From Escherichia phage vB_EcoS-613R10, in the sequence record ON470590: a stretch of 38,680 nucleotides of DNA; one strand, 5' to 3'. Each line of letters starts with the position of its first letter. The first letter of the stretch is position 1. The translations under genes were made by a program, and so were the position numbers. Shown one piece after another: positions 2,049 to 38,522 of this stretch. The notes under the pieces are model-generated. The model worked only from the letters and a program-made list of their open reading frames with translations. It did not search any database and was not told the origin of the DNA.

Positions 2049-2858
2049 TTATTCCTCTGAATTATCGATTACACTGTATTCCCCGGTTAATACAGAGGAA
2101 TCTGCAGGATCGATTGTCAGTGGTTCCTTTTCATCCATTGATACTGCACGCTGGATCTCAATTGATACGGGCAGATATTTGAACAGGCGACGAATAGCCG
2201 TTTTCTTTGCCATTTCTTCCCAGTGAGTTACCCACGGCCCGTTATTACCAGCTTTACTCTGGCTGCGCACCAGCTCAATCTGTTTGCGCGTCATAACTTC
2301 AAACTGAGTACCTCCGTCTTTCAGTCTTGCGACAGCATAGACGTGGGTAACAGGGGCATCTTCGTTTTCTCCTGGGCGGTGTATTAACTTTTCATCAAGG
2401 CCAAATTCGAAATTAAACTCGTCACCTTCACGGACAACACGGGCTGACAAGCTGGCGATTTGACCTGAACGGCGAGCCAGATCAATCATGCCGCGATAGC
2501 CAATGATTAGCTGAACGTTTTTTTTACCGCTCTTTTCGTTTTTATTACCAAAAGGCAGTAAATATGCATGACCGAGGGCGCTACCGGGCTCAAGTCCGAG
2601 CTGTGAACACTGTACGATTGCACTGACAAAACTCATAGTGTCACAGTTTCCTAACGCCGGAACTTTACGAATTTCTGTGGTGGCGATACGGATCATACGT
2701 TCAGCCGTCATATGGCGTGGAAGAGCTGCTGCCAGTTGCTCTTTCATTGATGGCTGGTTAATAAAACTAATCACGTCGTTATTTTTAATTGCTGCTGGTG
2801 CACGGTTTCCCTGAGTTTTTTGCAGATCGGCTTTTGCGATTGGTGGTTGCTTAGTCAT
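2049..2858 (-). CDS. recT: Recombinase RecT (single-strand annealing protein)
   Basis: 269 aa from internal ATG ([23 protein letters not shown]...); sequence recognised as E. coli RecT. Confidence 0.96.
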
Positions 2859-5451
2859 TTGCATATTCCTTAGCCCAGCGGGGCAGTGATAACGTCTTAA
2901 TAGCTGGCCATTCATCGGTATTGAGGCAGTCAGCCAGGGTTCGCAGATTGCGGTGATATTCCAGCTGACCTGCCAGTTTTGCTTCTTCGCCCATCATGAA
3001 AATTTCAACCGGATAACGTCCGCATTCAATAGTTGTGCTGGCAACCAGAAAAACGAAAGTTGGCTGCACTCCAAACTGTGCTTCATAACCGTCACTGTAG
3101 AATGCATCCTGAACGTGATAGCGGTAGTCGTAATAAGCGGTTTTGAATCGTTGAATATCCGCCGTAGTTTTCACGTCCATGATCCAGTGAAATTCAGGGA
3201 TAATTTTGTCCGGACGGCACCGACACAAAATTGCTGTTTCAGGATCTTCCCAGTAAATTGATGATTCAGCGTGTCCGGCGCTTTCAACAAGCCATTGCCC
3301 CAGCGGCAAAGCCATAACGCTCTGATACATGAGTTCAATTTTCCGGCCTTCTTCGGCAGTGATAACCGTTTTTCCTGTGCTTGCGCATTCCCTCAGAAAC
3401 GCTTTCTCTTCTTCTTTTCCGGAGTTTGTCCGGCGGTTAAATTCAGGTGCTACGATAAAGCGGTTACTGAATTCTTCCGGCTCAAGTACCCGGCAGTGGA
3501 AAGCGGTTCCTAAATCGAGCGTTTTTGTCTTTGTGGTGTCCACGGGGGCATTTTTACGCCACAAATACAGTGCCGGAGTATCAGCAATGTCATCGAGCTG
3601 AGACTTACTGACACCGGGACCCGCGTGGTAATTCTCATTCGAAATTCCGTAATAAATACCTGGCTCTATGTCTTCTACGATTACGGGATCTGCGACTTCG
3701 CCAGTTTCATCACTGCAATCGCGATGCGGATCGCTGCCAGCATTCTCATTGTGCGGATGTTCAGCGCCTTCCATTTCCTCCGGATCATTTTCCTTAGCTT
3801 CAACCTGACTCTCTTCATCGAATGTTTCCTGGTATGTTGCGTCGCCCATCACCGCACCACAGTCAGGGCAGTTATCCCCGCCAGTCTGGCCGCAGGCATT
3901 GCAGGCTATTTCCGGTTCCTGTTGCACTACTGGCTCAGGTTGATTCATATCCGGGCTGGTTTTTTCCGTTTCTGGCTGGTTCTGGTACACACAATCGCGA
4001 GTCTGGATCCCCTTTACCCATTTCGGATCGTTCGGGTCGCTAATTCCGTCAACAAATTCACCACGTGATGCAGCAAGCAATTTATCGGCATCGACAGGAT
4101 TTTTTGATGGAATGTTTTTCCGGGCTTCATGGAGTTCTGCCCGCAGTTCCTGATATTTCGCATCAACAGAATTTACCTGTGACTGAGCATCCAGCGGCTG
4201 CGTGTCCTGATGATGTTCAGTTGCGTCCGGTTCCATTGTTTCAGCCTCTCCCTGTTCAACTGCCGTTGTTCCAGATGGTTGCGGTTTTTCTTCATCATCC
4301 TGTTTTCCTTCTTCTGTTACTCGCTGCGGCATCGGGGCAGAGGAGCGACCGCAGGCAATATCCACGATTTCCGGATCAGGGTTGGCATGATCGGTTTCAG
4401 TCAGTACTTTGTTCAGATATTCAGTGACGTGCGCGGGGATGACCTCGATCCCAATTGGTGCTTCTTTTACGGACGCAACCACGATGGCGCGGGAATAATC
4501 CAGCCCGCCAGGCATGGTGATGAATTTGTCGCGGAAAACAGAAAAGGGCGGTTTATTTTCAGCGATAATTTCCTCAATGCGTTTAGCGTGTGCCGGATGA
4601 AGGTTATAGATGTCCAGATCCATTGAACGGGCCAGTACGCCAGTGGCTACGTCGCGCGCCAGTGACGTCAGATCGTGTACGAAACCTTCGCCGCGATCGG
4701 TGAGGTTTCCGCCGCCAGCATTAGCACCGGAAGCCGTGCGAGTGATGTGTGAAACACGATTACCCTTCATCCACTCTTTTGTCAGCAGTCCTCGATCGGT
4801 GTAGTCAGCGTTCAGGTATGCTTCGAAAAAAGCAGTTATCAGTCCCAGGTTTGAATTACCAGGATTAGGGAAAACTTTGTCAGTGTCACGAACCAGTTTG
4901 TGGAGTTCGCGAATTTCCAGCGGGTCGAGCAGGCTGGTTTTGTGGGAAACAGCCAGGGCAGTAACAGCCGGTAGTTCTTCAGCCCGAGCAATGTGTAATG
5001 CCTGGAGTCCGTCGCGTGAAACGTGCGTTACCGGTTTTTCGCTGCCGTGTTGAGCAAGCCAACGAATGGGCAGTTCCTGGCCAGAAATTGGGAGTAGCAT
5101 ATTCTCCTCAATCTCAGTCATGTCTTCGCCGTTGACGTTGGTATTGCCTTGATAGTGAGCGTTGTCTGGTGCTGCTCCCGGTTTTAGTTCCCATGTCATG
5201 GAGTCTTTGCTGAGTTGATAGCGTTCACTCCAGGTAAAATCGATCTCACCTTCAGCGGGCAGGTCATTAACGACAGGAAAATTCGTGGCAACAGCTTTAA
5301 AATAGCTGCTCAGTTTTTTACCTGACTTAACGATCAGGTAGTCCAGAGTGGCACAGGTCGATTCAAAATCGTTGCTTGCCCACAGGACGACGTCAGGTTC
5401 ACCGGATGATTTTTTCGCTTTCCGTAACAGGAAGAGTGGTTTTGTGCTCAT
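2851..5451 (-). CDS. recE: Exodeoxyribonuclease VIII RecE
   Basis: 866 aa ORF; recognised as Rac RecE; its stop overlaps the recT start. Confidence 0.96.
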
Positions 5452-17887: not shown

Positions 17888-18255
17888 ATGAAAATGCACA
17901 ATGCCCCTCATTCCTGGCCTGACTTACTGGAACTCTTACAAAGTTGGTGGCGTGGAGATACGCCGCTGGGTGCAGTGGTTATGTCAATTATTATGGCTGG
18001 TTTGCGCATTGCCTATTTTGGCGGGGGNNNNNNNNNNNNNNNNNNNNNNNNNNNNNNNNNNNNNNNCGAAAAACGCTTGAGATTCTGCTTTGTGGTGCTC
18101 TGACGCTGACCTTTGCATCCGCGCTTGAGTATGTCGGATGGCCTAAATCACTTTCTGTTGCCATTGGTGGTGGGGTGGGGCTGATTGGTGTTGATGCTAT
18201 TCGTGGTGCGGCAATGAGGGTCATCGGTAACAAGTTCGGTGCCCATAAGGAGTAA
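17888..18255 (+). CDS. S: Class I holin (lambda S-like), interrupted by an N-run
   Basis: MKM dual-start motif as in lambda S; hydrophobic segments before and after the gap; C-terminus LIGVDAIRGAAMRVIGNKFG resembles the lambda S tail; directly upstream of the endolysin. Confidence 0.75.
18028..18066. other. Run of N (assembly gap or masked sequence)
   Basis: 39 consecutive N inside the holin gene; the reading frame changes across the gap. Confidence 0.99.
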
Positions 18256-22835: not shown

Positions 22836-23930
22836 ATGAGCAGACCGGACTGGGGGGCGTTGCAGCAGGAGTATATTGCTGAATACACCCGCTCCGGTAT
22901 ATCTCCGGTGGCATGGTGTGAAGCAAGGGGACTGAATTACGCAACAGCCCGTCGTTACATCAAAAAAACTCCGAAAAATGCGCAGACAGAAATGTGCAAA
23001 ACTGCGCAAAAAAGTGCGCAGAAAAAATCTGCGCAGACTGCACAAAAGCGGAACGAAAAATCTCAGGAAAAAAAGCCAGTATTCGATGCGGGCCTGAATG
23101 AGGGCGACGCGGAGGAATTTTCGTTCTGTCCCGATGAATTCGGCATTTCTGACCAGCAGGCTAAGTTTGCGATGCTTGTTGCTCAGGGTAAAAAGCCGAC
23201 AGAGGCGTACCGACTAGCCGGTTATGAGGGGCAAGGTGCGACAGCTAATAGCAACGCCAGTCGTATGCTTAGAAATGCCAGGGTTTTTCGCGCTATCAGC
23301 TACTTCCGCAATCAGTACCAGAAACGCTATACCGCAGACCTGGATTTACTAGTGAGTCAGTTGATGGCCATTGTCCTGGCCGACCCCAATCAGCTTGCAC
23401 AATTTCGCCGTGTTAACTGCCGTTATTGCTGGGGCGAGAATCATCTCTACCAGTGGCGCGATATAGCAGAATTCGACAAGGCAGCGGCGCAGGCTTCCAG
23501 AGATGGCAAACCCGAACCGGAATATGGAGGCCTCGGCTTTGTTGATAACGCCATACCCAATCCGGACTGCCCGAAGTGCTGCGGTGAGGGAACGGGACAG
23601 CTTTATATGGCTGATACCACTCTGCTTGATGGGGATGCGCGGCAATTATATGCAGGGGCAAAATTCGGAAAATTCGGCGTTGAGATCCTGCTGGAGGATA
23701 AGGCTGCCGCCCGGCGTGAATTGTTGCGTTTGCTTTCTGCTGGCGGGGCTTTATGTGCAGATAAGCGGCTACAGGAACTGGAAATTGAACGGCGCAGAAT
23801 GGAAAACCAGAAGCTGCGCAAAGAGATCGAAACGGTGGAAGATAATGAACATCCCCAGCCTGTGGCGATCAATATTAATGTGGTTGATGCCAGAGTAAGG
23901 AGTGATGAAGATGATCTCTCCGACGCTTAA
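22836..23930 (+). CDS. Terminase small subunit
   Basis: 364 aa immediately upstream of and overlapping the large subunit; N-terminal HTH-like region; lysine-rich linker. Confidence 0.7.
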   Translation: MSRPDWGALQQEYIAEYTRSGISPVAWCEARGLNYATARRYIKKTPKNAQTEMCKTAQKSAQKKSAQTAQKRNEKSQEKKPVFDAGLNEGDAEEFSFCPDEFGISDQQAKFAMLVAQGKKPTEAYRLAGYEGQGATANSNASRMLRNARVFRAISYFRNQYQKRYTADLDLLVSQLMAIVLADPNQLAQFRRVNCRYCWGENHLYQWRDIAEFDKAAAQASRDGKPEPEYGGLGFVDNAIPNPDCPKCCGEGTGQLYMADTTLLDGDARQLYAGAKFGKFGVEILLEDKAAARRELLRLLSAGGALCADKRLQELEIERRRMENQKLRKEIETVEDNEHPQPVAININVVDARVRSDEDDLSDA

Positions 23931-28684: not shown

Positions 28685-29824
28685 ATGGCTGGAAATACCC
28701 TGACCGGGTTGATCCCGACTATTTATACCGCCCTGGATGTTGTATCCCGTGAGCAGGTAGGTTTTATCCCTGCGGTAGCAAAAAACGCAAAAGCTGACGC
28801 CGCAGCAAAAGATCAGACGGTAACCGCGCCAGTTGCGCCTGAGGCGAAAACCGAAGATATCGTACCGGGGCCGTCAGCTCCGAATACCGGTGATCAAAAT
28901 ATTGGCACTGTTGATGTAAAAATTACTAAATCCAAAATGGCACCGGTTAAATGGAATGGTGAAGAACAACTGGCTCTTGGCCCTTCAGGGACTTACAACA
29001 CCATTCTGGCTGATCAGTTCAAGCAGGCTTTTCGCGCCCTTGCAAACGAGGTTGAGGCTGATCTTGGTGCGTTGTATTTCGGTGCTTCCCGCGCCGTGGG
29101 AACCGCAGGGACAACGCCGTTTGGTGTTAAAGATGATCTTTCTGATGCTGCTCTGGCTCGTCAGGTTCTGGAGGATAACGGCGCACCGACAACCGATCTG
29201 CAGATGGTGCTTGGCTCCACTGCCATTGCTAATTTGCGCGGAAAACAGTCTGTATTGTTTAAAGTGAATGAATCCGGCACTGAACAGCTACTGCGTGAGG
29301 GCGTGTTGGGGCGTCTGGAGGGATTCAATATTCACAGTTCGGCAGGTGTGAAACGAGCGCCAAAGGTTGCTGCAACTGGTTATCTCGTGAATGGAGAGAA
29401 AAAAGAAGGCGATGTTCTTATTTCCATTGATACTGGTTCGGGGTGTATTTCTGCAGGTCAGATTGTTACGTTCGCTGGTGATCCGAATCAGTATGTTGTG
29501 GCAGCAGCGACCAGCAATCTGATTACTCTTGCAGCGCCCGGACTGCGTCAGGATCTGGCCGATGATACTGCCATCACAGTTGTTGGGGCCTTTACTGCAA
29601 ATATGGCGTTTGATCGCAACGCGTTTCTGCTGGCATCCCGTACTCCGGCAATGCCGGAAGGTGGCGATAATGCTGATGATGTAATGAATGTTACGGACCC
29701 GATTTCAGGGATTACGTTCCAGATTGCACTGTATCGTCAGTATCGCCAGGTGCGCTATGAAGTTGGACTGGCATGGGGTGTTTCATCAGTGAAGCCGGCA
29801 CATGGTTGTCTGATTCTTGGTTAA
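28685..29824 (+). CDS. Major capsid protein
   Basis: 379 aa from ATG at 28685 (SD AAGGA); position after the scaffold and followed by a strong hairpin terminator. Confidence 0.75.
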   Translation: MAGNTLTGLIPTIYTALDVVSREQVGFIPAVAKNAKADAAAKDQTVTAPVAPEAKTEDIVPGPSAPNTGDQNIGTVDVKITKSKMAPVKWNGEEQLALGPSGTYNTILADQFKQAFRALANEVEADLGALYFGASRAVGTAGTTPFGVKDDLSDAALARQVLEDNGAPTTDLQMVLGSTAIANLRGKQSVLFKVNESGTEQLLREGVLGRLEGFNIHSSAGVKRAPKVAATGYLVNGEKKEGDVLISIDTGSGCISAGQIVTFAGDPNQYVVAAATSNLITLAAPGLRQDLADDTAITVVGAFTANMAFDRNAFLLASRTPAMPEGGDNADDVMNVTDPISGITFQIALYRQYRQVRYEVGLAWGVSSVKPAHGCLILG

Positions 29825-30046: not shown

Positions 30047-30442
30047 ATGATCACTTACGTGACCTGTGATGACGTTGATAATGCGTTTGGGAACGCCTGG
30101 ACGAGTGAGAACGCTAAAAATAAAGCTGTTTTAATGGCTAATGCCTGGCTTAATGGCTTCAACCTGAAAATTAACCCATCCCGTATTCCGGAAGAGGTAA
30201 AACTTGCGGGAGCATATGCAGCCAGAATTGCCTCATTCGGTAAGTTGTTTCAGCAGAAAAATGATTCTGGCGTTGTTATCAGTAAAGCCGTGTCGGCTGA
30301 CGGGGTCAGTGTATCGAAATCATTTTCTGAGTTGCCAGCAAACAGCACTGCATTGCTTGAACCCGATTTACAGCTTGCGATAGCACTGCTGAAACCGTAC
30401 GGACTTAGTCGCTCACAAGTCAGGGTTGTGAGGGGGGGATAA
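30047..30442 (+). CDS. Putative head-tail connector/adaptor
   Basis: 131 aa; SD AGGAG; first of four small translationally coupled genes between capsid and tail tube. Confidence 0.55.
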   Translation: MITYVTCDDVDNAFGNAWTSENAKNKAVLMANAWLNGFNLKINPSRIPEEVKLAGAYAARIASFGKLFQQKNDSGVVISKAVSADGVSVSKSFSELPANSTALLEPDLQLAIALLKPYGLSRSQVRVVRGG

Positions 30443-30825
30443 TGGGGCTTCGTGAAGAGATTCAGTCAGAGGTTGCCGCTGCTTTTGATGAGGATTTAGC
30501 GGACGCCGTGAGTGATTTTTCTGGTTCTTACGTTACGCACCGGCACTGGGATCCTGTGACGGAAACTGGCGGCGAATCCACCGCAATCTATACCGGGCGA
30601 GGCGTGTTGACACGTTATAAGCTGGGCAGAATTGATGGGATTAATATTTTGCATGGTGACCTTAAATTAACCGCTCTGGTATGCGAGGTTACGGATAAAC
30701 CAGCTGTCGACCATATTATTGAGATTTATGATCCTGTATCAAGGCAGTTACAACGATACGAGGTAATTACAGCAAGTGTAGATCCTTCCGCATCAGTTTA
30801 CTCTATCCAGTTAAGGAGAGCGTAA
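30442..30825 (+). CDS. Putative head closure protein
   Basis: 127 aa; start overlaps the upstream stop; call by position. Confidence 0.55.
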   Translation: MGLREEIQSEVAAAFDEDLADAVSDFSGSYVTHRHWDPVTETGGESTAIYTGRGVLTRYKLGRIDGINILHGDLKLTALVCEVTDKPAVDHIIEIYDPVSRQLQRYEVITASVDPSASVYSIQLRRA

Positions 30826-31621: not shown

Positions 31622-32584
31622 GTGAGTTCAGGTGCAAAGGTTATCTCGGCATTTATCCGGGAGACAGTTGCAGGCACTACGCCAGCAAGTGGTGACTGGA
31701 GTTTATTAAAACGCACAAGCTGGGGAGTAAAACCCACCCAGAATAAAGGCGAAAATAATGAGATTGGTGGCTCCCGGATGGCTCAGGGGGCGACGCCTGG
31801 CACTGTGGATGTCGGCGGTGATGTTGGTACCAAATTTCGCTGGGGTCAACATGATGATTTTCTTGCATCCTGTTTCGGCGCGGAATGGTCAGGCGATTCT
31901 CTGACAATGGGGAATGAGCGAATAACATTTTCTCTGGCGACCTATGCGTCCGATGTCGGAATTGCCTCTGTCGTCAGAGGAGCGCAGGTTGGCTCATGGA
32001 AAATGCAGATCCCTAACGACGGCGATATTACAGCGACCGTAACCTTTGCCGGGCTGGGCTGGGAATCAAAGGCCGATGATACGAATTTTATCAAAGGCGA
32101 ACCTGTGGATAGTGCAGGAAAGTTACGCTATTCGTTTAAGGCGGTTTCAGCAGTAAGCCTGAATGGTGTTGCCGGAGGTAACGGTTTTTGTATCGACAGT
32201 TTTGATATTCAGTTCGATAACAAACTCCAGACACAGCGTTGTATCGGGACCGGCTCGCCTTATGCAGGAGCAAATATTCCGACTACTTTTACACCGTCCG
32301 GTACGGTGACGCTTTCATGGTCTAAAGCCGCGTGGGAAATCTGGAGTAAAACACTGACTGGAGAAACAGTTCCGTTCAGCTTCACGCTTTCGAATGGAGA
32401 GGGGGCATACACTTTCAGTTTCCCGAAGGTTCAGGTGTCAGGTGAATGGCCTGATGGGGGTAATACTGACATTATCCAGGTTCAATTGAGCATTACCGCA
32501 GCAGATGAAGCACCTACGATAACCAGAAAAAAATGCTCCCCGACTGCCGTGATCGCAAAAGCCAGTGCTGATGCGATTAGTTGA
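31622..32584 (+). CDS. Major tail tube protein
   Basis: 320 aa from GTG at 31622 preceded by AGGAGG; immediately upstream of the chaperone pair and tape measure. Confidence 0.7.
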   Translation: MSSGAKVISAFIRETVAGTTPASGDWSLLKRTSWGVKPTQNKGENNEIGGSRMAQGATPGTVDVGGDVGTKFRWGQHDDFLASCFGAEWSGDSLTMGNERITFSLATYASDVGIASVVRGAQVGSWKMQIPNDGDITATVTFAGLGWESKADDTNFIKGEPVDSAGKLRYSFKAVSAVSLNGVAGGNGFCIDSFDIQFDNKLQTQRCIGTGSPYAGANIPTTFTPSGTVTLSWSKAAWEIWSKTLTGETVPFSFTLSNGEGAYTFSFPKVQVSGEWPDGGNTDIIQVQLSITAADEAPTITRKKCSPTAVIAKASADAIS

Positions 32585-32632
32585 TTTTCCGTTATTCCCC
32601 CTGTGGTACTGCACTACAGGGGGACGCATTGA

Positions 32633-33094
32633 ATGAGGTTATGGATGTTTATTCTTAATCAGAAAATTATCATCGGTGGAGAACGCTGGTTTACGCCAAT
32701 GAAGGACTTAAAACCTATAGACGGGTTAAAACTGTTGGTGGCAAGCAGCGATAACGATCAGTATCGCTCCCGTAATGCATTAATCCGTCGTCACATTGAG
32801 AAAATGGATGCCAGTTTGCACGTCGGAACGAAGGAGTTTGATATTTCAAAGGTTTCCGAGGTAGATTCTGTTGATGATTTACTCATTGATAATGCTGCTC
32901 GTTATCTGCTGAAAGACTGGAAAGGGGTTGGTGAACTGGTTAATGGTGCTGAGGTTGCACTGGAATATACGCCAGAACGAGGGATCGCGCTGCTTAAGCA
33001 GAATCCAGAGTTGTACTGGCAGATCCTTGCAGAAGCAGCCAGCATCGCCCAGGGTAAAGAGCAGCAGAAGCAGGATACGATAAAAAAGCCATAG
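32633..33094 (+). CDS. Tail assembly chaperone (lambda G-like)
   Basis: 153 aa; acidic C-terminus; slippery A_AAA_AAG 2 codons before the stop; a -1 frame stays open to 33402. Confidence 0.75.
   Translation: MRLWMFILNQKIIIGGERWFTPMKDLKPIDGLKLLVASSDNDQYRSRNALIRRHIEKMDASLHVGTKEFDISKVSEVDSVDDLLIDNAARYLLKDWKGVGELVNGAEVALEYTPERGIALLKQNPELYWQILAEAASIAQGKEQQKQDTIKKP
33082..33088 (+). other. Programmed -1 ribosomal frameshift slippery heptamer A_AAA_AAG
   Basis: Heptamer in the correct phase of the G frame (codons AAA 33083-33085, AAG 33086-33088). Confidence 0.65.
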
Positions 33095-33402
33095 CCGCCC
33101 AGCGGTGGTTATCGGAGTTCGGGGGAGAAAGGGGGGAAAAGGCAAGATGGAAGCGAGAAAAACTCAGGTTGCCACCGATACCGGAACCAGAAATAGACCC
33201 GGTGCTTAAGGAATTGTTGTACGCCTATTCGGTAATATCCCGTGCCCGACGTTATGCTGGAATGACCGGGGTGCCTTTGCCTTTATCTCTGACAGAGATA
33301 AATGAATATTTAGCCACTCATCCGGTATTGATTGAGCGCGATGAGTTTGAAGCAGTGATCTTTGCACTGGATGACCAGTATTTTCAGGAGCAGTGTGTGT
33401 AG
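33088..33402 (+). CDS. T-portion of the frameshifted GT chaperone fusion
   Basis: The -1 frame continues ...KK-AIAAQRWLSEFGG...PPIPEPEIDPVLKELLYAYSVISRARRYAGMTG... with no independent ATG or SD; the ORF track only sees it from a TTG at 33169. Confidence 0.6.
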   Translation, partial: AIAAQRWLSEFGGERGEKARWKREKLRLPPIPEPEIDPVLKELLYAYSVISRARRYAGMTGVPLPLSLTEINEYLATHPVLIERDEFEAVIFALDDQYFQEQCV

Positions 33403-33525
33403 TTGTTAATTACGTACACTCTGTTACAGAGATGTGATGGTGTCTTTAATTAAATCGATGATGCTCCTGGAGAAAAGCATTGCGTGGCCTCGTAATCGCT
33501 ATATCTACTATTATGTCGCCTGAAA

Positions 33526-33550
33526 CCCACTTCGGTGGGCTTTTTGTTGT
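33526..33550 (+). terminator. Terminator-like hairpin before the tape measure gene
   Basis: CCCAC-TTCG-GTGGG followed by CTTTTTGTTG. Confidence 0.45.
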
Positions 33551-33565
33551 CTGGAGTTTTAATAA

Positions 33566-36500
33566 ATGGCAGAGCAAACCTCGCGTCTCGCAATAATTAT
33601 TGATAGCACTGGAGCAAAAAATAATGCTGACAATCTGACCTCCTCATTAGTCAAAATGACGCAGGCCGGGGAAACTGCTGCAAATAGCGCAGGGAAAGTG
33701 ACTAAGGCAACAGAAGATGAGAAGAACGCGCTCGCAAAATTAAAAGCAGCTATTGATCCAGTTGGTGCCGCAATTGATACTGTCGGTCGACGCTATTCTG
33801 AATTAAAGAAATTTTTCGATAAAGGGATTATTGATAAAGAAGAATATGAATTTCTTGTCCGTAAACTTAATGAAACCACAGAGGAATTGAGCGGGGTTGC
33901 GCAAGCGCAGAGAGAAGCCGAGAAGGCCGGAAAACTTGCTGCCGCCCAGCAGGAAGCGCAGACTCAGGCCTTTCAAAGAATGCTGGACAAGATCGACCCT
34001 CTGGCTGCGGCGCTAAGAAATCTTGAACAACAGCAGGATGAACTTAATGCTGCGTTTGCATCCGGGAAAATAAATGGTTCTCAGTTTGAGAATTATAGCC
34101 GAAAAATACAGGAAACACGGCGAGAGCTTACCGGAGAGGCTCAGGCAGAGCGAGAAGCAGCAAAAGCGCATGATGAACAGGTTGCTGCTTTGCAACGTCT
34201 GATTGCTCAACTTGACCCTGTCGGAACTGCTTTTAATCGTCTGGTAGAACAACAGAAACAGCTCAATGAAGCAAAAGCTAAGGGGATGCTCTCTCCTGAA
34301 ATGTATGAGGAACTTTCTGGAAAACTTCGTGCTATGCGGAGTGAGCTTGAGGTTACTCAATCTCAATTAAGCAAAACCGGAATGTCGGCAAAACAAACGG
34401 CTTTTGCTATGCGCATGTTGCCTGCACAAATGACGGATATTGTTGTTGGGTTGTCCACTGGTCAGTCGCCTTTTATGGTGTTAATGCAGCAGGGCGGCCA
34501 GCTAAAAGATATGTTCGGTGGGATTGGCCCGGCGATCAAAGGTGTTGGTTCTTATGTGCTGGGATTAATTAATCCTTTTACCCTGGCCGCAGCAGCCGTT
34601 GGCGTCTTAGGGCTGGCTTACTATAAAGGCTCTCAGGAGCAGGACGAATTTAATAAGTCTCTTATTCTTACCGGAAATCAGTTGGGGACAACCAGCGGGC
34701 AATTGGCCGATATAGTTCAACGTGCCGGGAATGCGGCTGATTCGACAACTGGCGCTGCGGCGGCAGTATTAAACCAGCTTGTGCGTTCGGGAAAGGTAGC
34801 GAGCAGTTCGCTGGAGCAAGTGACGACAGCGATAGTAAAAACGAGCGAAGTAACAGGAATATCAACCGAACAACTGGTTAATGACTTCAATGAAATTGCA
34901 AAGGATCCTGTCAGTGCCATATCAAAACTTAATGATCAGTACCATTTTCTGACAATTGCGACTTATAACCAGATTAAGGCGCTACAGGATGAAGGGAACC
35001 AGCAGGAGGCCGCCCGCATTGCGACAGAAGCATACTCATCCTCAATGATCCAGCGCACCAACCAGATTAAAGAAAATCTTGGTTATCTTGAGACTGCATG
35101 GAAAGCTGTCGCAGACTCCGCAAAATGGGCATGGGATTCCATGCTGGATATTGGCCGTGAGGCCTCCCTTGATCAAAAAATCTCAGATGTTCTCCGTCAA
35201 ATTGATGAAATAGAAAAAAATACCCGACCCGGAGTTTTCGGGTTAGGTGGCATTGGAGATGGCGGAGCTCAAAATAAAAGGCTGGCACGATTAAAGCAGC
35301 AATTGGGCGTACTTCAAGCAGAAAAAATTGCTCAGGACGTACTAAATTCATCAATAAACGATTACAACAAGCGACAACAGGAAGGAATTGAACTCAGACA
35401 GAGAGCAGATGCCTTTTCAAAACAATATCAGACCCGGGAGCAGCAGAGAGCTAGTGAACTTGCAAAACTGGAAAAACTAAAGAGTCAGTATTCAAAGGAA
35501 GAATATAATAATCTTATCGCTCAAATAAATGAGCGTTATAAAGGTCCAAAGCAACCAAAGGCGAAAGGTTATTCGGATGATGCTGCCCAACGAATGATTG
35601 ATCATCTGAATCAACAGAATGCGTTACTAAGTTCACAAACTGAATTAACCGTTAAATTAAGTTCCTCTGAACAGGAACTGGTTAAGTGGCGTCAGCAGAT
35701 TGCCGACCTGGAGTCACGACCGTCATCGAAATTAACCAAGGATCAGAAATCGCTTCTCTTACACCGGGAAGAAATAACCGCGTTGATGGAGAAAAATGTT
35801 GCGATTGAAAAAAATAACAGGCTAATCAAGGAATCCGCCGAAATAGCTGCATGGCGTGATTCATTGCAGGCTTCGATTGATAATCGTCAACAGGGGTATG
35901 ATATTCAGATTGCTGGTTATGGGGTTGGCGATAAAAATCAGCAACGCCAGCAGGAATTACTGCGGATTGAACGTGAATATAACAATCAGCGTCTGCAACT
36001 TGAACGTGACTATGCAGATAAATCCCGTGGGATGTCAAATCATGTTTTTCAGGAGAAAATGCAGGCTCTGAATGATGCTCTGGAACGAGAAAAAGAAATT
36101 GTCAGACAGAAAAACGAGCAGCTCGATATTCAGGCAGGAGACTGGGTTAGTGGTGCCTCCCAGGGATTCAATAACTGGCTGGATGACACTAAGGATATCA
36201 GTGAGCAGATAAAATCAACCACGACTCAGATGTTTGATGGAATGACCGATGCGCTGGGTGATTTTGTCACGACAGGCAAAGCAAATTTTCGTTCTTTCGC
36301 TACTTCCGTGATTTCGGATCTTAGTCGAATAGCATTAAAGGCTTCAATTACTGGGATTTTCGACAGCATTAGTAACAGTTCTTCTGGGGGGATTTTAGGA
36401 ACTATCGGGAGTGCTATTAGTAAATTTATTCCGAATGCAAAGGGCGGTGTTTATGAGTCTCCGTCATTGAACACGTATTCGAACGGTATTTATGATTCCC

Positions 36501-36799
36501 CGCAATTTTTTGCTTTTGCAAGAGGGGCTGGTGTTTTTGGTGAGGCTGGTCCGGAAGCCATTATGCCATTAACACGAACTTCCGATGGTTCTCTTGGTGT
36601 CAGAGCTATTAATAGTAAAAGTGGTAATGGAGGCGGAGATATTACCTATGCCCCTGTATACCAAATCACTATTCAAAATGACGGCCAGAATGGAGAGATT
36701 GGCCCTCAGGCAATAAAAGCACTTATGGGGATGGTTGATCAGCGGGTGCAGGGCAATCTGTTAAATATGCGACGTGATGGGGGAATGTTAAGTGGCTAA
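33566..36799 (+). CDS. Tail length tape measure protein
   Basis: 1077 aa; long coiled-coil N-terminal half with internal sequence repeats, hydrophobic central segment; sits after G/GT as in lambda. Confidence 0.93.
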
Positions 36800-37833: not shown

Positions 37834-38522
37834 ATGACAGAGACAGAATCAGCGATNNNNNNNNNNAGGAAAGATATTTTCCCTGCGTGAATATCTCCGG
37901 TGAGCCGGAGGAGTATTTCCGGATGTCGCCGGAGGACTGGCTGAGTGCAGAAATGCAGGGAGAGATTGTGGCGCTGGTCCACAGCCACCCCGGTGGTCTG
38001 CCCTGGCTGAGTGAGGCCGACCGGCGGCTGCAGGTACAGAGTGATTTGCCGTGGTGGCTGGTCTGCCGGGGGGCGATTCATAAATTCCGCTGTGTGCCGC
38101 ATCTCACCGGGCGGCGCTTTGAGCACGGGGTAACGGACTGTTACACGCTGTTCCGGGACGCTTACCATCTGGCGGGAATTGAGATGCCGGATTTTCATCG
38201 CGGGGATGACTGGTGGCGTAACGGTCAGAATCTCTATCTGGATAATCTGGAGGCCACAGGGCTGTATCAGGTGCCGTTGTCAGCGGCGCAGCCGGGCGAT
38301 GTGCTGCTGTGCTGTTTTGGTTCATCGGTGCCGAATCATGCCGCCATTTACTGTGGTGACAGCGAGCTGCTGCACCATATTCCTGAACAACTGAGCAAAC
38401 GAGAGAGGTACACCGACAAATGGCAGCGACGCACACACTCCCTCTGGCGTCACCGGGCATGGCACGCATCTGCCTTTACGGGGATTTACAACGATTTGGC
38501 CGCCGCATCGACCTTCGAGTGA
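37834..38522 (+). CDS. K: Tail assembly protein K (lambda-like), interrupted by an N-run
   Basis: After the gap the frame reads ERYFPCVNISGEPEEYFRMSPEDWL...HSHPGG..., near-identical to lambda gpK as recalled; ATG at 37834 then a 10 N gap, so N-terminal length and frame are uncertain. Confidence 0.85.
37857..37866. other. Run of N (assembly gap or masked sequence)
   Basis: 10 consecutive N near the 5' end of the K gene. Confidence 0.99.

Follow-up and report, generated by a model that had tools for sequence, protein, structure and literature searches.

A probable G/GT-type programmed −1 frameshift in the YdaY-family tail assembly chaperone gene of Rac-like Escherichia coli siphophages and prophages

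The stretch of DNA analysed here, referred to as the window, comprises 38,680 nucleotides of Escherichia phage vB_EcoS-613R10 (ON470590) and is nearly identical to deposited genomes of E. coli phages and prophages (vB_EcoS-666R9, ON470614 and others). Two runs of N, standing for masked or unknown bases, are present at 18028-18066 and 37857-37866, the second of them inside a K-like tail gene, where it gives XXXX in the translation. In the tail gene region, a pair of overlapping reading frames, termed G and T below, is found between the gene for the tail tube protein (PF18906) and that for the tape measure protein (PF06791, PF09718), which is the position expected of a G/GT pair, and the genes that follow the tape measure gene are given in the GenBank record as tail tip assembly proteins M and L. 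The features of the locus are as follows.

31622-32584, plus strand: tail tube (major tail) protein gene, located upstream of the pair (PF18906 Phage_tube_2, E 1.9e-32; RefSeq 'phage tail tube protein')
32645-33094, plus strand: G, tail assembly chaperone of the YdaY family, the 0-frame product, 149 aa
33082-33088, plus strand: slippery heptamer A_AAA_AAG in X_XXY_YYZ phase (codons ATA AAA AAG)
33092-33094, plus strand: 0-frame stop codon TAG of G
33088-33402, plus strand: T, the −1 frame extension, 104 codons (33088-33399) followed by TAG at 33400-33402; proposed to be made only as the C-terminal portion of GT
33089-33115, plus strand: hairpin predicted by folding, adjoining the heptamer and containing the 0-frame stop; possible lineage-specific stimulator
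33566-36799, plus strand: tape measure protein gene, the downstream neighbour (PF06791 TMP_2, E 1.3e-80; PF09718 Tape_meas_lam_C, E 3.9e-26)

The longest open reading frame in the G frame extends from ATG 32633 to 33094 and would encode 153 aa. The most likely start, judging from the homologues, is the conserved ATG at 32645, upstream of which GAGG is found at 32635-32638; the homologues begin with MFILNQK or MIILNPR at the equivalent methionine. Because this is the conserved start, G probably has 149 aa and the fusion product GT 252 aa, rather than 153 and about 256 aa. The first-pass annotation of this DNA had placed an A_AAA_AAG heptamer in phase within the chaperone frame and had described the −1 frame as open for 104 codons up to 33402, and a reading of the sequence around 33082 (...CAG GAT ACG ATA AAA AAG CCA TAG CCG CCC...) bears out both statements, AAG being the second codon before the TAG at 33092-33094. 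In the −1 frame, a TAA at 33055-33057 is followed by an uninterrupted frame from 33058 until TAG 33400-33402. The fusion predicted there from the open −1 frame is likewise retained, whereas its length of about 256 aa, which is obtained by counting from ATG 32633 (152 + 104), gives way to 252 aa from ATG 32645.

Both flanks of the pair contain non-coding elements. Between the tube stop codon and the start of G, a hairpin at 32597-32623 has a folding energy of −22.2 kcal/mol (z −4.4, with 0 of 200 shuffles as stable), and in the Citrobacter, Raoultella and Serratia relatives an equivalent hairpin is followed by a run of T, in the manner of an intrinsic terminator; this hairpin may set the expression of the tube gene above that of the downstream genes. 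T and the tape measure gene are separated by 163 non-coding nucleotides (window 33403-33565), which contain a terminator-like CCCAC-TTCG-GTGGG stem (33526-33539) and then CTTTTTGTTG, about 27 nt before the tape measure ATG. The fold is no better than that of shuffled sequences (z −0.23), and some distant relatives carry extra small open reading frames at the position of the spacer.

A G/GT pair is expected to consist of proteins related to known tail assembly chaperones, and this is what was found. G matches the PHROG family phrog_313, 'Tail assembly chaperone' (E 3.1e-46), and the −1 reading frame matches phrog_1189 (E 2.2e-36), with a weak match below the cut-off to the Pfam family PF23812, Phage_TAC_18 (E 7.8e-4). 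The Pfam and NCBIfam scans assigned no family to G; the precomputed Pfam family of its homologues is PF27119, Phage_YdaY. When G and the −1 frame were fused in silico, the match to phrog_313 covered positions 13-246 of 258 with 174.8 bits, as compared to 13-149 with 159.1 bits for G alone, and the length of the profile suggests that phrog_313 includes full-length fused chaperones. A second chaperone family, phrog_8233, was also matched better by the fusion (E 1.2e-7, as compared to 0.0097 before), and here the alignment spans the junction. A sequence-profile search of the PDB with the G alignment returned nothing at E up to 10, the HK97 entry 2ob9 included. The predicted fold of G (AF2, pLDDT 63, a model of modest confidence) has this same HK97 tail assembly chaperone, 2ob9, as its best PDB match, and the BFVD matches of G include named tail assembly and tape-measure chaperones.

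The heptamer A_AAA_AAG alone is not rare, with 19 copies in the window where 14.8 are expected by chance. Among the 67 in-phase X_XXY_YYZ heptamers located in reading frames of at least 100 aa in the window, the median −1 extension is 10 codons, and what stands out at 33082 is the combination of an in-phase heptamer with a long −1 extension rather than the heptamer alone. The other extensions of more than 100 codons among these 67 all continue into another reading frame, either downstream or overlapping: the heptamer at 30433 is followed by a gene (30442-30825) with its own ATG at 30442, the one at 29258 belongs to a reading frame that sits within the coat gene, and the one at 23508 is also of this kind. 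An in-phase G_GGA_AAG at window 34789, within the tape measure gene, has a −1 extension of 30 codons and is probably due to chance.

The comparison with relatives drew on 80 loci from viruses and 14 from genomes chosen as species representatives, together with several phage records that carry annotation. These come down to 36 different sequences at the site and around it, with identities of 56-100% in G. T lies in the −1 frame relative to G in 35 of the 36 distinct loci, the exception (L048) having a further indel in the downstream run of G. The heptamer is A_AAA_AAG in 33 of them, G_GGA_AAG in two (from Raoultella, L091, and Serratia, L093) and G_GGG_AAG in one (from Pectobacterium, L092, 2420), always at the identical codons. 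The codon that precedes the heptamer is in every case NNA (ATA or GTA), or NNG for the GGG form, as the heptamer demands. In contrast to the slip site, the position of the 0-frame stop is not conserved, and it is found 2, 8, 26 or 36 codons past the AAG codon.

Conservation of the −1 peptide, KK-AIAAQRWLSEFGGE... in the window, sets in at the first codon past the heptamer, as exemplified by the pair KK-AIAAQRWLSEFGGERGEKARWKREKLRLPP and GK-VLEAQKWLNEFGGETGEKAKWRREKLGLPP, and the consensus of the peptide from the heptamer on is [KG]K[AV][ILV]xAQxW[LI]xxFGGE...KL.LP. When the 92 nt past the heptamer are read in the −1 frame, variation is found at 28 of 31 third codon positions as compared to 11 of 31 second positions, and the share of changed codons that are synonymous is 62% in this frame, as opposed to 14.5% for the 0 frame and 6% for the +1 frame. 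The substitutions past the heptamer follow a −1-frame coding pattern, and purifying selection acts on both the G and the T parts. Thus, in the 36 distinct loci, the arrangement and the slip site are conserved and the selection for −1 coding begins at the slip site, as is expected of a G/GT gene.

At the homologous junction, the same layout is kept by more distant relatives, namely Pseudomonas phages phiPSA1 and Aurca01, Erwinia phage Gungnir39 and Acinetobacter phage TCUAN1. Their sites read G_GAA_AAG (phiPSA1, L099, and Aurca01, L097), C_GCA_AAG (Gungnir39, L098) and G_GGA_AAG (TCUAN1), and the junction peptides of this distant group are GK-AIARFQW, RK-VIEAQEW and GK-VVSLYEW. At the G_GGG_AAG, G_GAA_AAG and C_GCA_AAG sites only the A-site portion of the motif, A_AAG, is left, while the −1 frame of T and the junction peptide are conserved. 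Because a few relatives have these three forms, the heptamer rule is not absolute in the family.

A different variant is present in the chromosome of Providencia stuartii (L103, CP114582.1, approximately 2501-3115), where the site carries one extra A, ATAAAAAAAGTC. With this extra A, the predicted fusion becomes a single reading frame, ...ETIKKVIEAQKWLTEFGGE..., with the junction ETIKK-VIEAQKW, and the gene caller began this fused frame at an internal methionine. The single frame could be either a real variant with constitutive fusion or a homopolymer sequencing error. Runs of G and A early in T (33123-33142, GGGGGAGAAAGGGGGGAAAA) also appear to be an indel hot-spot; the frame switches again there in L048 and in the proteins P0003 and P0005, in which assembly errors or decaying prophages may be involved.

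Such indels raise the question of whether a mutation or a sequencing error has simply split a single chaperone frame in a decaying prophage. The copy in the Rac prophage of E. coli K-12 is indeed a truncated remnant, and extra indels near the site or in the downstream G run are present in P0001, P0003, P0005 and L048. The two-frame layout is nevertheless found in 1040 E. coli genomes that cover at least 80% of the region, in records deposited as phages, and in relatives from Citrobacter, Raoultella, Serratia and Pectobacterium as well as from Erwinia, Pseudomonas and Acinetobacter phages, and both parts are under purifying selection, so that a broken gene is scarcely credible as an explanation.

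RNA polymerase slippage on the run of A, with an A lost or gained in the mRNA, is another way in which the frame could change. The run at 33082-33087 consists of six A, poly-A runs can cause such slippage (PMC3711429), and the Providencia variant demonstrates that the A run is prone to indels at the DNA level. Programmed cases of transcriptional slippage, however, use A runs longer than seven (PMC3711429), as compared to the A6 of this locus; the relatives with G_GGA_AAG or G_GGG_AAG, which contain only two or three A, keep the frame arrangement; and the in-phase X_XXY_YYZ pattern, which is respected at this site, is relevant only to the re-pairing of tRNAs. The probability of a transcriptional origin of the frame change is therefore judged to be very slight.

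A further possibility is that G and T are two genes, with T made separately from an internal TTG at 33169 or 33217 and the heptamer being coincidental. The start-like codons of the −1 frame are TTG at 33169, 33214 and 33217 and an internal ATG at 33262. AAGGA is located 4 nt before TTG 33217, which is where annotators start T, and gene callers place a 'hypothetical protein' of 61-66 aa at this frame. Conservation is limited to the internal methionine, with neither the TTG codons nor the AAGGA retained, and in two relatives (L070 and L095) the first 60 conserved −1 codons contain no ATG, GTG or TTG. Because the only start-like codon in both is the conserved internal methionine at codon 61, these 60 conserved codons are out of reach of initiation. 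In the same manner, the 27-45 codons upstream of the TTGs are conserved as protein with a −1 coding signature and are unreachable by initiation, and the heptamer is either conserved or swapped for another slippery heptamer, all of which argues against a separately made T and leaves it very unlikely. The second frame thus overlaps the end of G in the −1 frame with no conserved start, as in G/GT pairs. The initial claim that this frame has no ATG or Shine-Dalgarno sequence of its own holds in the sense that no start is conserved, but it is too strong as worded, as the TTG codons, the AAGGA and the internal ATG exist.

Considering these observations, a G/GT-type programmed −1 ribosomal frameshift very probably takes place in the tail chaperone gene of this Rac-like E. 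coli siphophage or prophage. As far as sequence analysis can establish, the −1 region appears to be translated as a continuation of G. Most ribosomes would translate G (32645-33094, 149 aa) and terminate at TAG 33092, and a minority would slip with AAA in the P site and AAG in the A site. The two tRNA-Lys would then re-pair one base back on A_AAA_AAG (33082-33088), from AAA AAG to AAA AAA, after which GCC at 33088 would be read next and the −1 frame would be followed to 33402. The predicted product is GT of 252 aa, with the junction ...DTIKK/AIAAQRWLSEFGGE... By analogy with lambda, the tape measure protein would be coated by many copies of G and few of GT, the T part would recruit the tube protein, and neither G nor GT would remain in the virion; the ratio of G to GT and the roles of the two products are likewise proposed from lambda. 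In G/GT pairs of this type, G is made in large excess over GT at a fixed ratio, and tail assembly requires both.

The heptamers A_AAA_AAG and G_GGA_AAG both rank within the top three −1 heptamers of E. coli by efficiency, and A_AAA_AAG without stimulators gave only approximately 0.3% frameshifting in one reporter context (PMC4066793). A conserved stimulator would probably not be needed at the ydaY site, where frameshifting is expected to occur at a low rate of no more than a few per cent. The first-pass annotation had pointed to the region downstream of 33088 as a place to look for a stimulatory structure, and no such structure was found to be conserved across 13 diverse loci, for which the alifold consensus amounted to only −3.9 kcal/mol and 6 pairs; a lineage-specific hairpin was the only one recovered. 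This hairpin, at 33089-33115, has a folding energy of −14.2 kcal/mol (z −3.56; no fold of equal stability among 200 shuffled sequences) and is limited to the E. coli/Salmonella lineage, where its energy ranges from −9.9 to −14.2 kcal/mol; when a longer stretch, 33060-33140, is folded, its stability does not exceed that of shuffled sequences (z +0.28). The hairpin follows the heptamer without a spacer, and its upper 5 bp (33095-33108, −6.0 kcal/mol) are 6 nt away. A change in the L062 group that looks compensatory in fact breaks two pairs of the hairpin and is thus not covariation. Upstream, a Shine-Dalgarno-like AGGA (33072-33075) lies 6 nt from the heptamer and is missing from the relatives in Serratia and Pectobacterium. 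An Rfam scan of 32400-33700 returned only flpD at a chance-level E of 0.25.

A modest stimulatory role of the hairpin at 33089-33115 in its lineage is possible, and the efficiency in the E. coli lineage might be modulated by it. A more elaborate proposal is that the E. coli/Rac lineage possesses its own stimulator, with this hairpin giving a G:GT ratio unlike that of the relatives that have no hairpin, and that the relatives with C_GCA_AAG or G_GAA_AAG use slippage in the A site only, on A_AAG. This combination is rather unlikely; if true, a single chaperone family would tune its frameshift efficiency by several means.

Of 5426 complete E. coli genomes, 1075 (approximately 20%) contain a match to the region of the locus. 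The reading frame that carries the heptamer is 'ydaY' of Rac-like prophages, and the locus represents the intact form of the K-12 Rac ydaY region, in which nothing is kept but the 3' portion of ydaY, the T frame and a fragment of the tape measure gene (ynaA). The K-12 remnant matches the window from 32743 on, with the heptamer and the T frame included, upstream of ynaA. Slippage is annotated neither in the annotated GenBank and RefSeq records examined nor in the feature names of the matches listed, and the usual labels are 'protein YdaY' plus 'hypothetical protein', or hypothetical proteins for both. The annotated phage relatives Aurca01, Gungnir39, phiPSA1 and TCUAN1 contain no joined coding sequence at this locus. 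In both RefSeq records examined (L101, 1636-1995, and L102, 1493-1852), YdaY is the truncated 119-aa model of K-12 Rac, which is used even on an intact prophage where the frame has 149-153 aa, and the T piece is either a 'hypothetical protein' (L101, 2103-2303) or omitted. A literature search for frameshifting in ydaY or in the Rac prophage found no paper.

On the evidence of the sequence comparisons, the ydaY frameshift is real and well supported; it had not been annotated before, and the class to which it belongs is very well known. It adds nothing new mechanistically, and its main use is for annotation: if YdaY were named as the G chaperone and the downstream frame as the T part that extends it, thousands of records would be put right and the Pfam family Phage_YdaY would gain a function. 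Furthermore, the family offers a natural series of slip sites at one position, comprising A_AAA_AAG, G_GGA_AAG, G_GGG_AAG, G_GAA_AAG, C_GCA_AAG and the in-frame A7 variant, and this series could be used to study the efficiency of the sites.

Several known systems can be compared with this locus. In E. coli dnaX, which encodes tau and gamma, frameshifting at A_AAA_AAG reaches approximately 50% with the aid of an upstream Shine-Dalgarno-like element and a downstream hairpin, spaced about 10 nt upstream and about 6 nt downstream, respectively. The ydaY site shares with dnaX the identical heptamer and the predicted slippage of tRNA-Lys and, in the present lineage, a Shine-Dalgarno-like AGGA upstream and a hairpin downstream. 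It differs in that slippage would extend the protein, whereas in dnaX it truncates the protein, and in that only 6 nt separate the AGGA from the heptamer and the hairpin directly adjoins it, neither element being conserved in the family; low efficiency is also expected here. The conserved Shine-Dalgarno-like element and hairpin flanking A_AAA_AAG that characterize the dnaX type are thus lacking in the family as a whole.

Among phage chaperones, the A_AAA_AAG site of ECs1801, an HK97-like prophage chaperone, belongs to cluster A_AAA_AAG_25 (Sharma et al. 2014) and GeneTack cluster 10 (Antonov et al. 2013), and its measured efficiency is 6-7%. The ydaY locus resembles this cluster in its heptamer, its occurrence in E. 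coli prophages and its longer fusion product; identity of the two genes is ruled out by family and by size (124/226 aa for ECs1801 versus 149/252 aa here). For the fold model of G, too, the best structural match was the HK97 chaperone 2ob9.

G-T frameshifting is described as near-universal in long-tailed double-stranded DNA phages (PMC5009743), and in the lambda G/GT pair a programmed −1 frameshift occurs at G_GGA_AAG (Levin et al. 1993; Xu et al. 2004/2013/2014; summarised in PMC5009743). Lambda gpG and gpGT, in a ratio of approximately 30:1, bind the tape measure protein, and the T part recruits the tube protein (PMC5009743). Unlike lambda, the present locus has A_AAA_AAG as the heptamer, a G of the YdaY family (PF27119/phrog_313), approximately 160 nt with a terminator-like hairpin between T and the tape measure gene and, in this lineage, a strong hairpin adjoining the slip site; the lambda gpG and gpT families gave no match to this locus in the family scans. 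In common with lambda, the gene order is tube, G, T and tape measure, the −1 slip would take place a few codons before the stop of G, T has no initiation of its own and no stimulatory structure is conserved. The downstream tail genes are annotated as H-, M- and L-like, the tape measure protein matches Tape_meas_lam_C, and some relatives of the locus carry the lambda heptamer G_GGA_AAG itself. The lambda-like G/GT arrangement proposed in the first-pass annotation is therefore recovered in each of its sequence-level traits, that is, in its position, its in-phase heptamer, its −1 reading frame, its conservation and its chaperone families.
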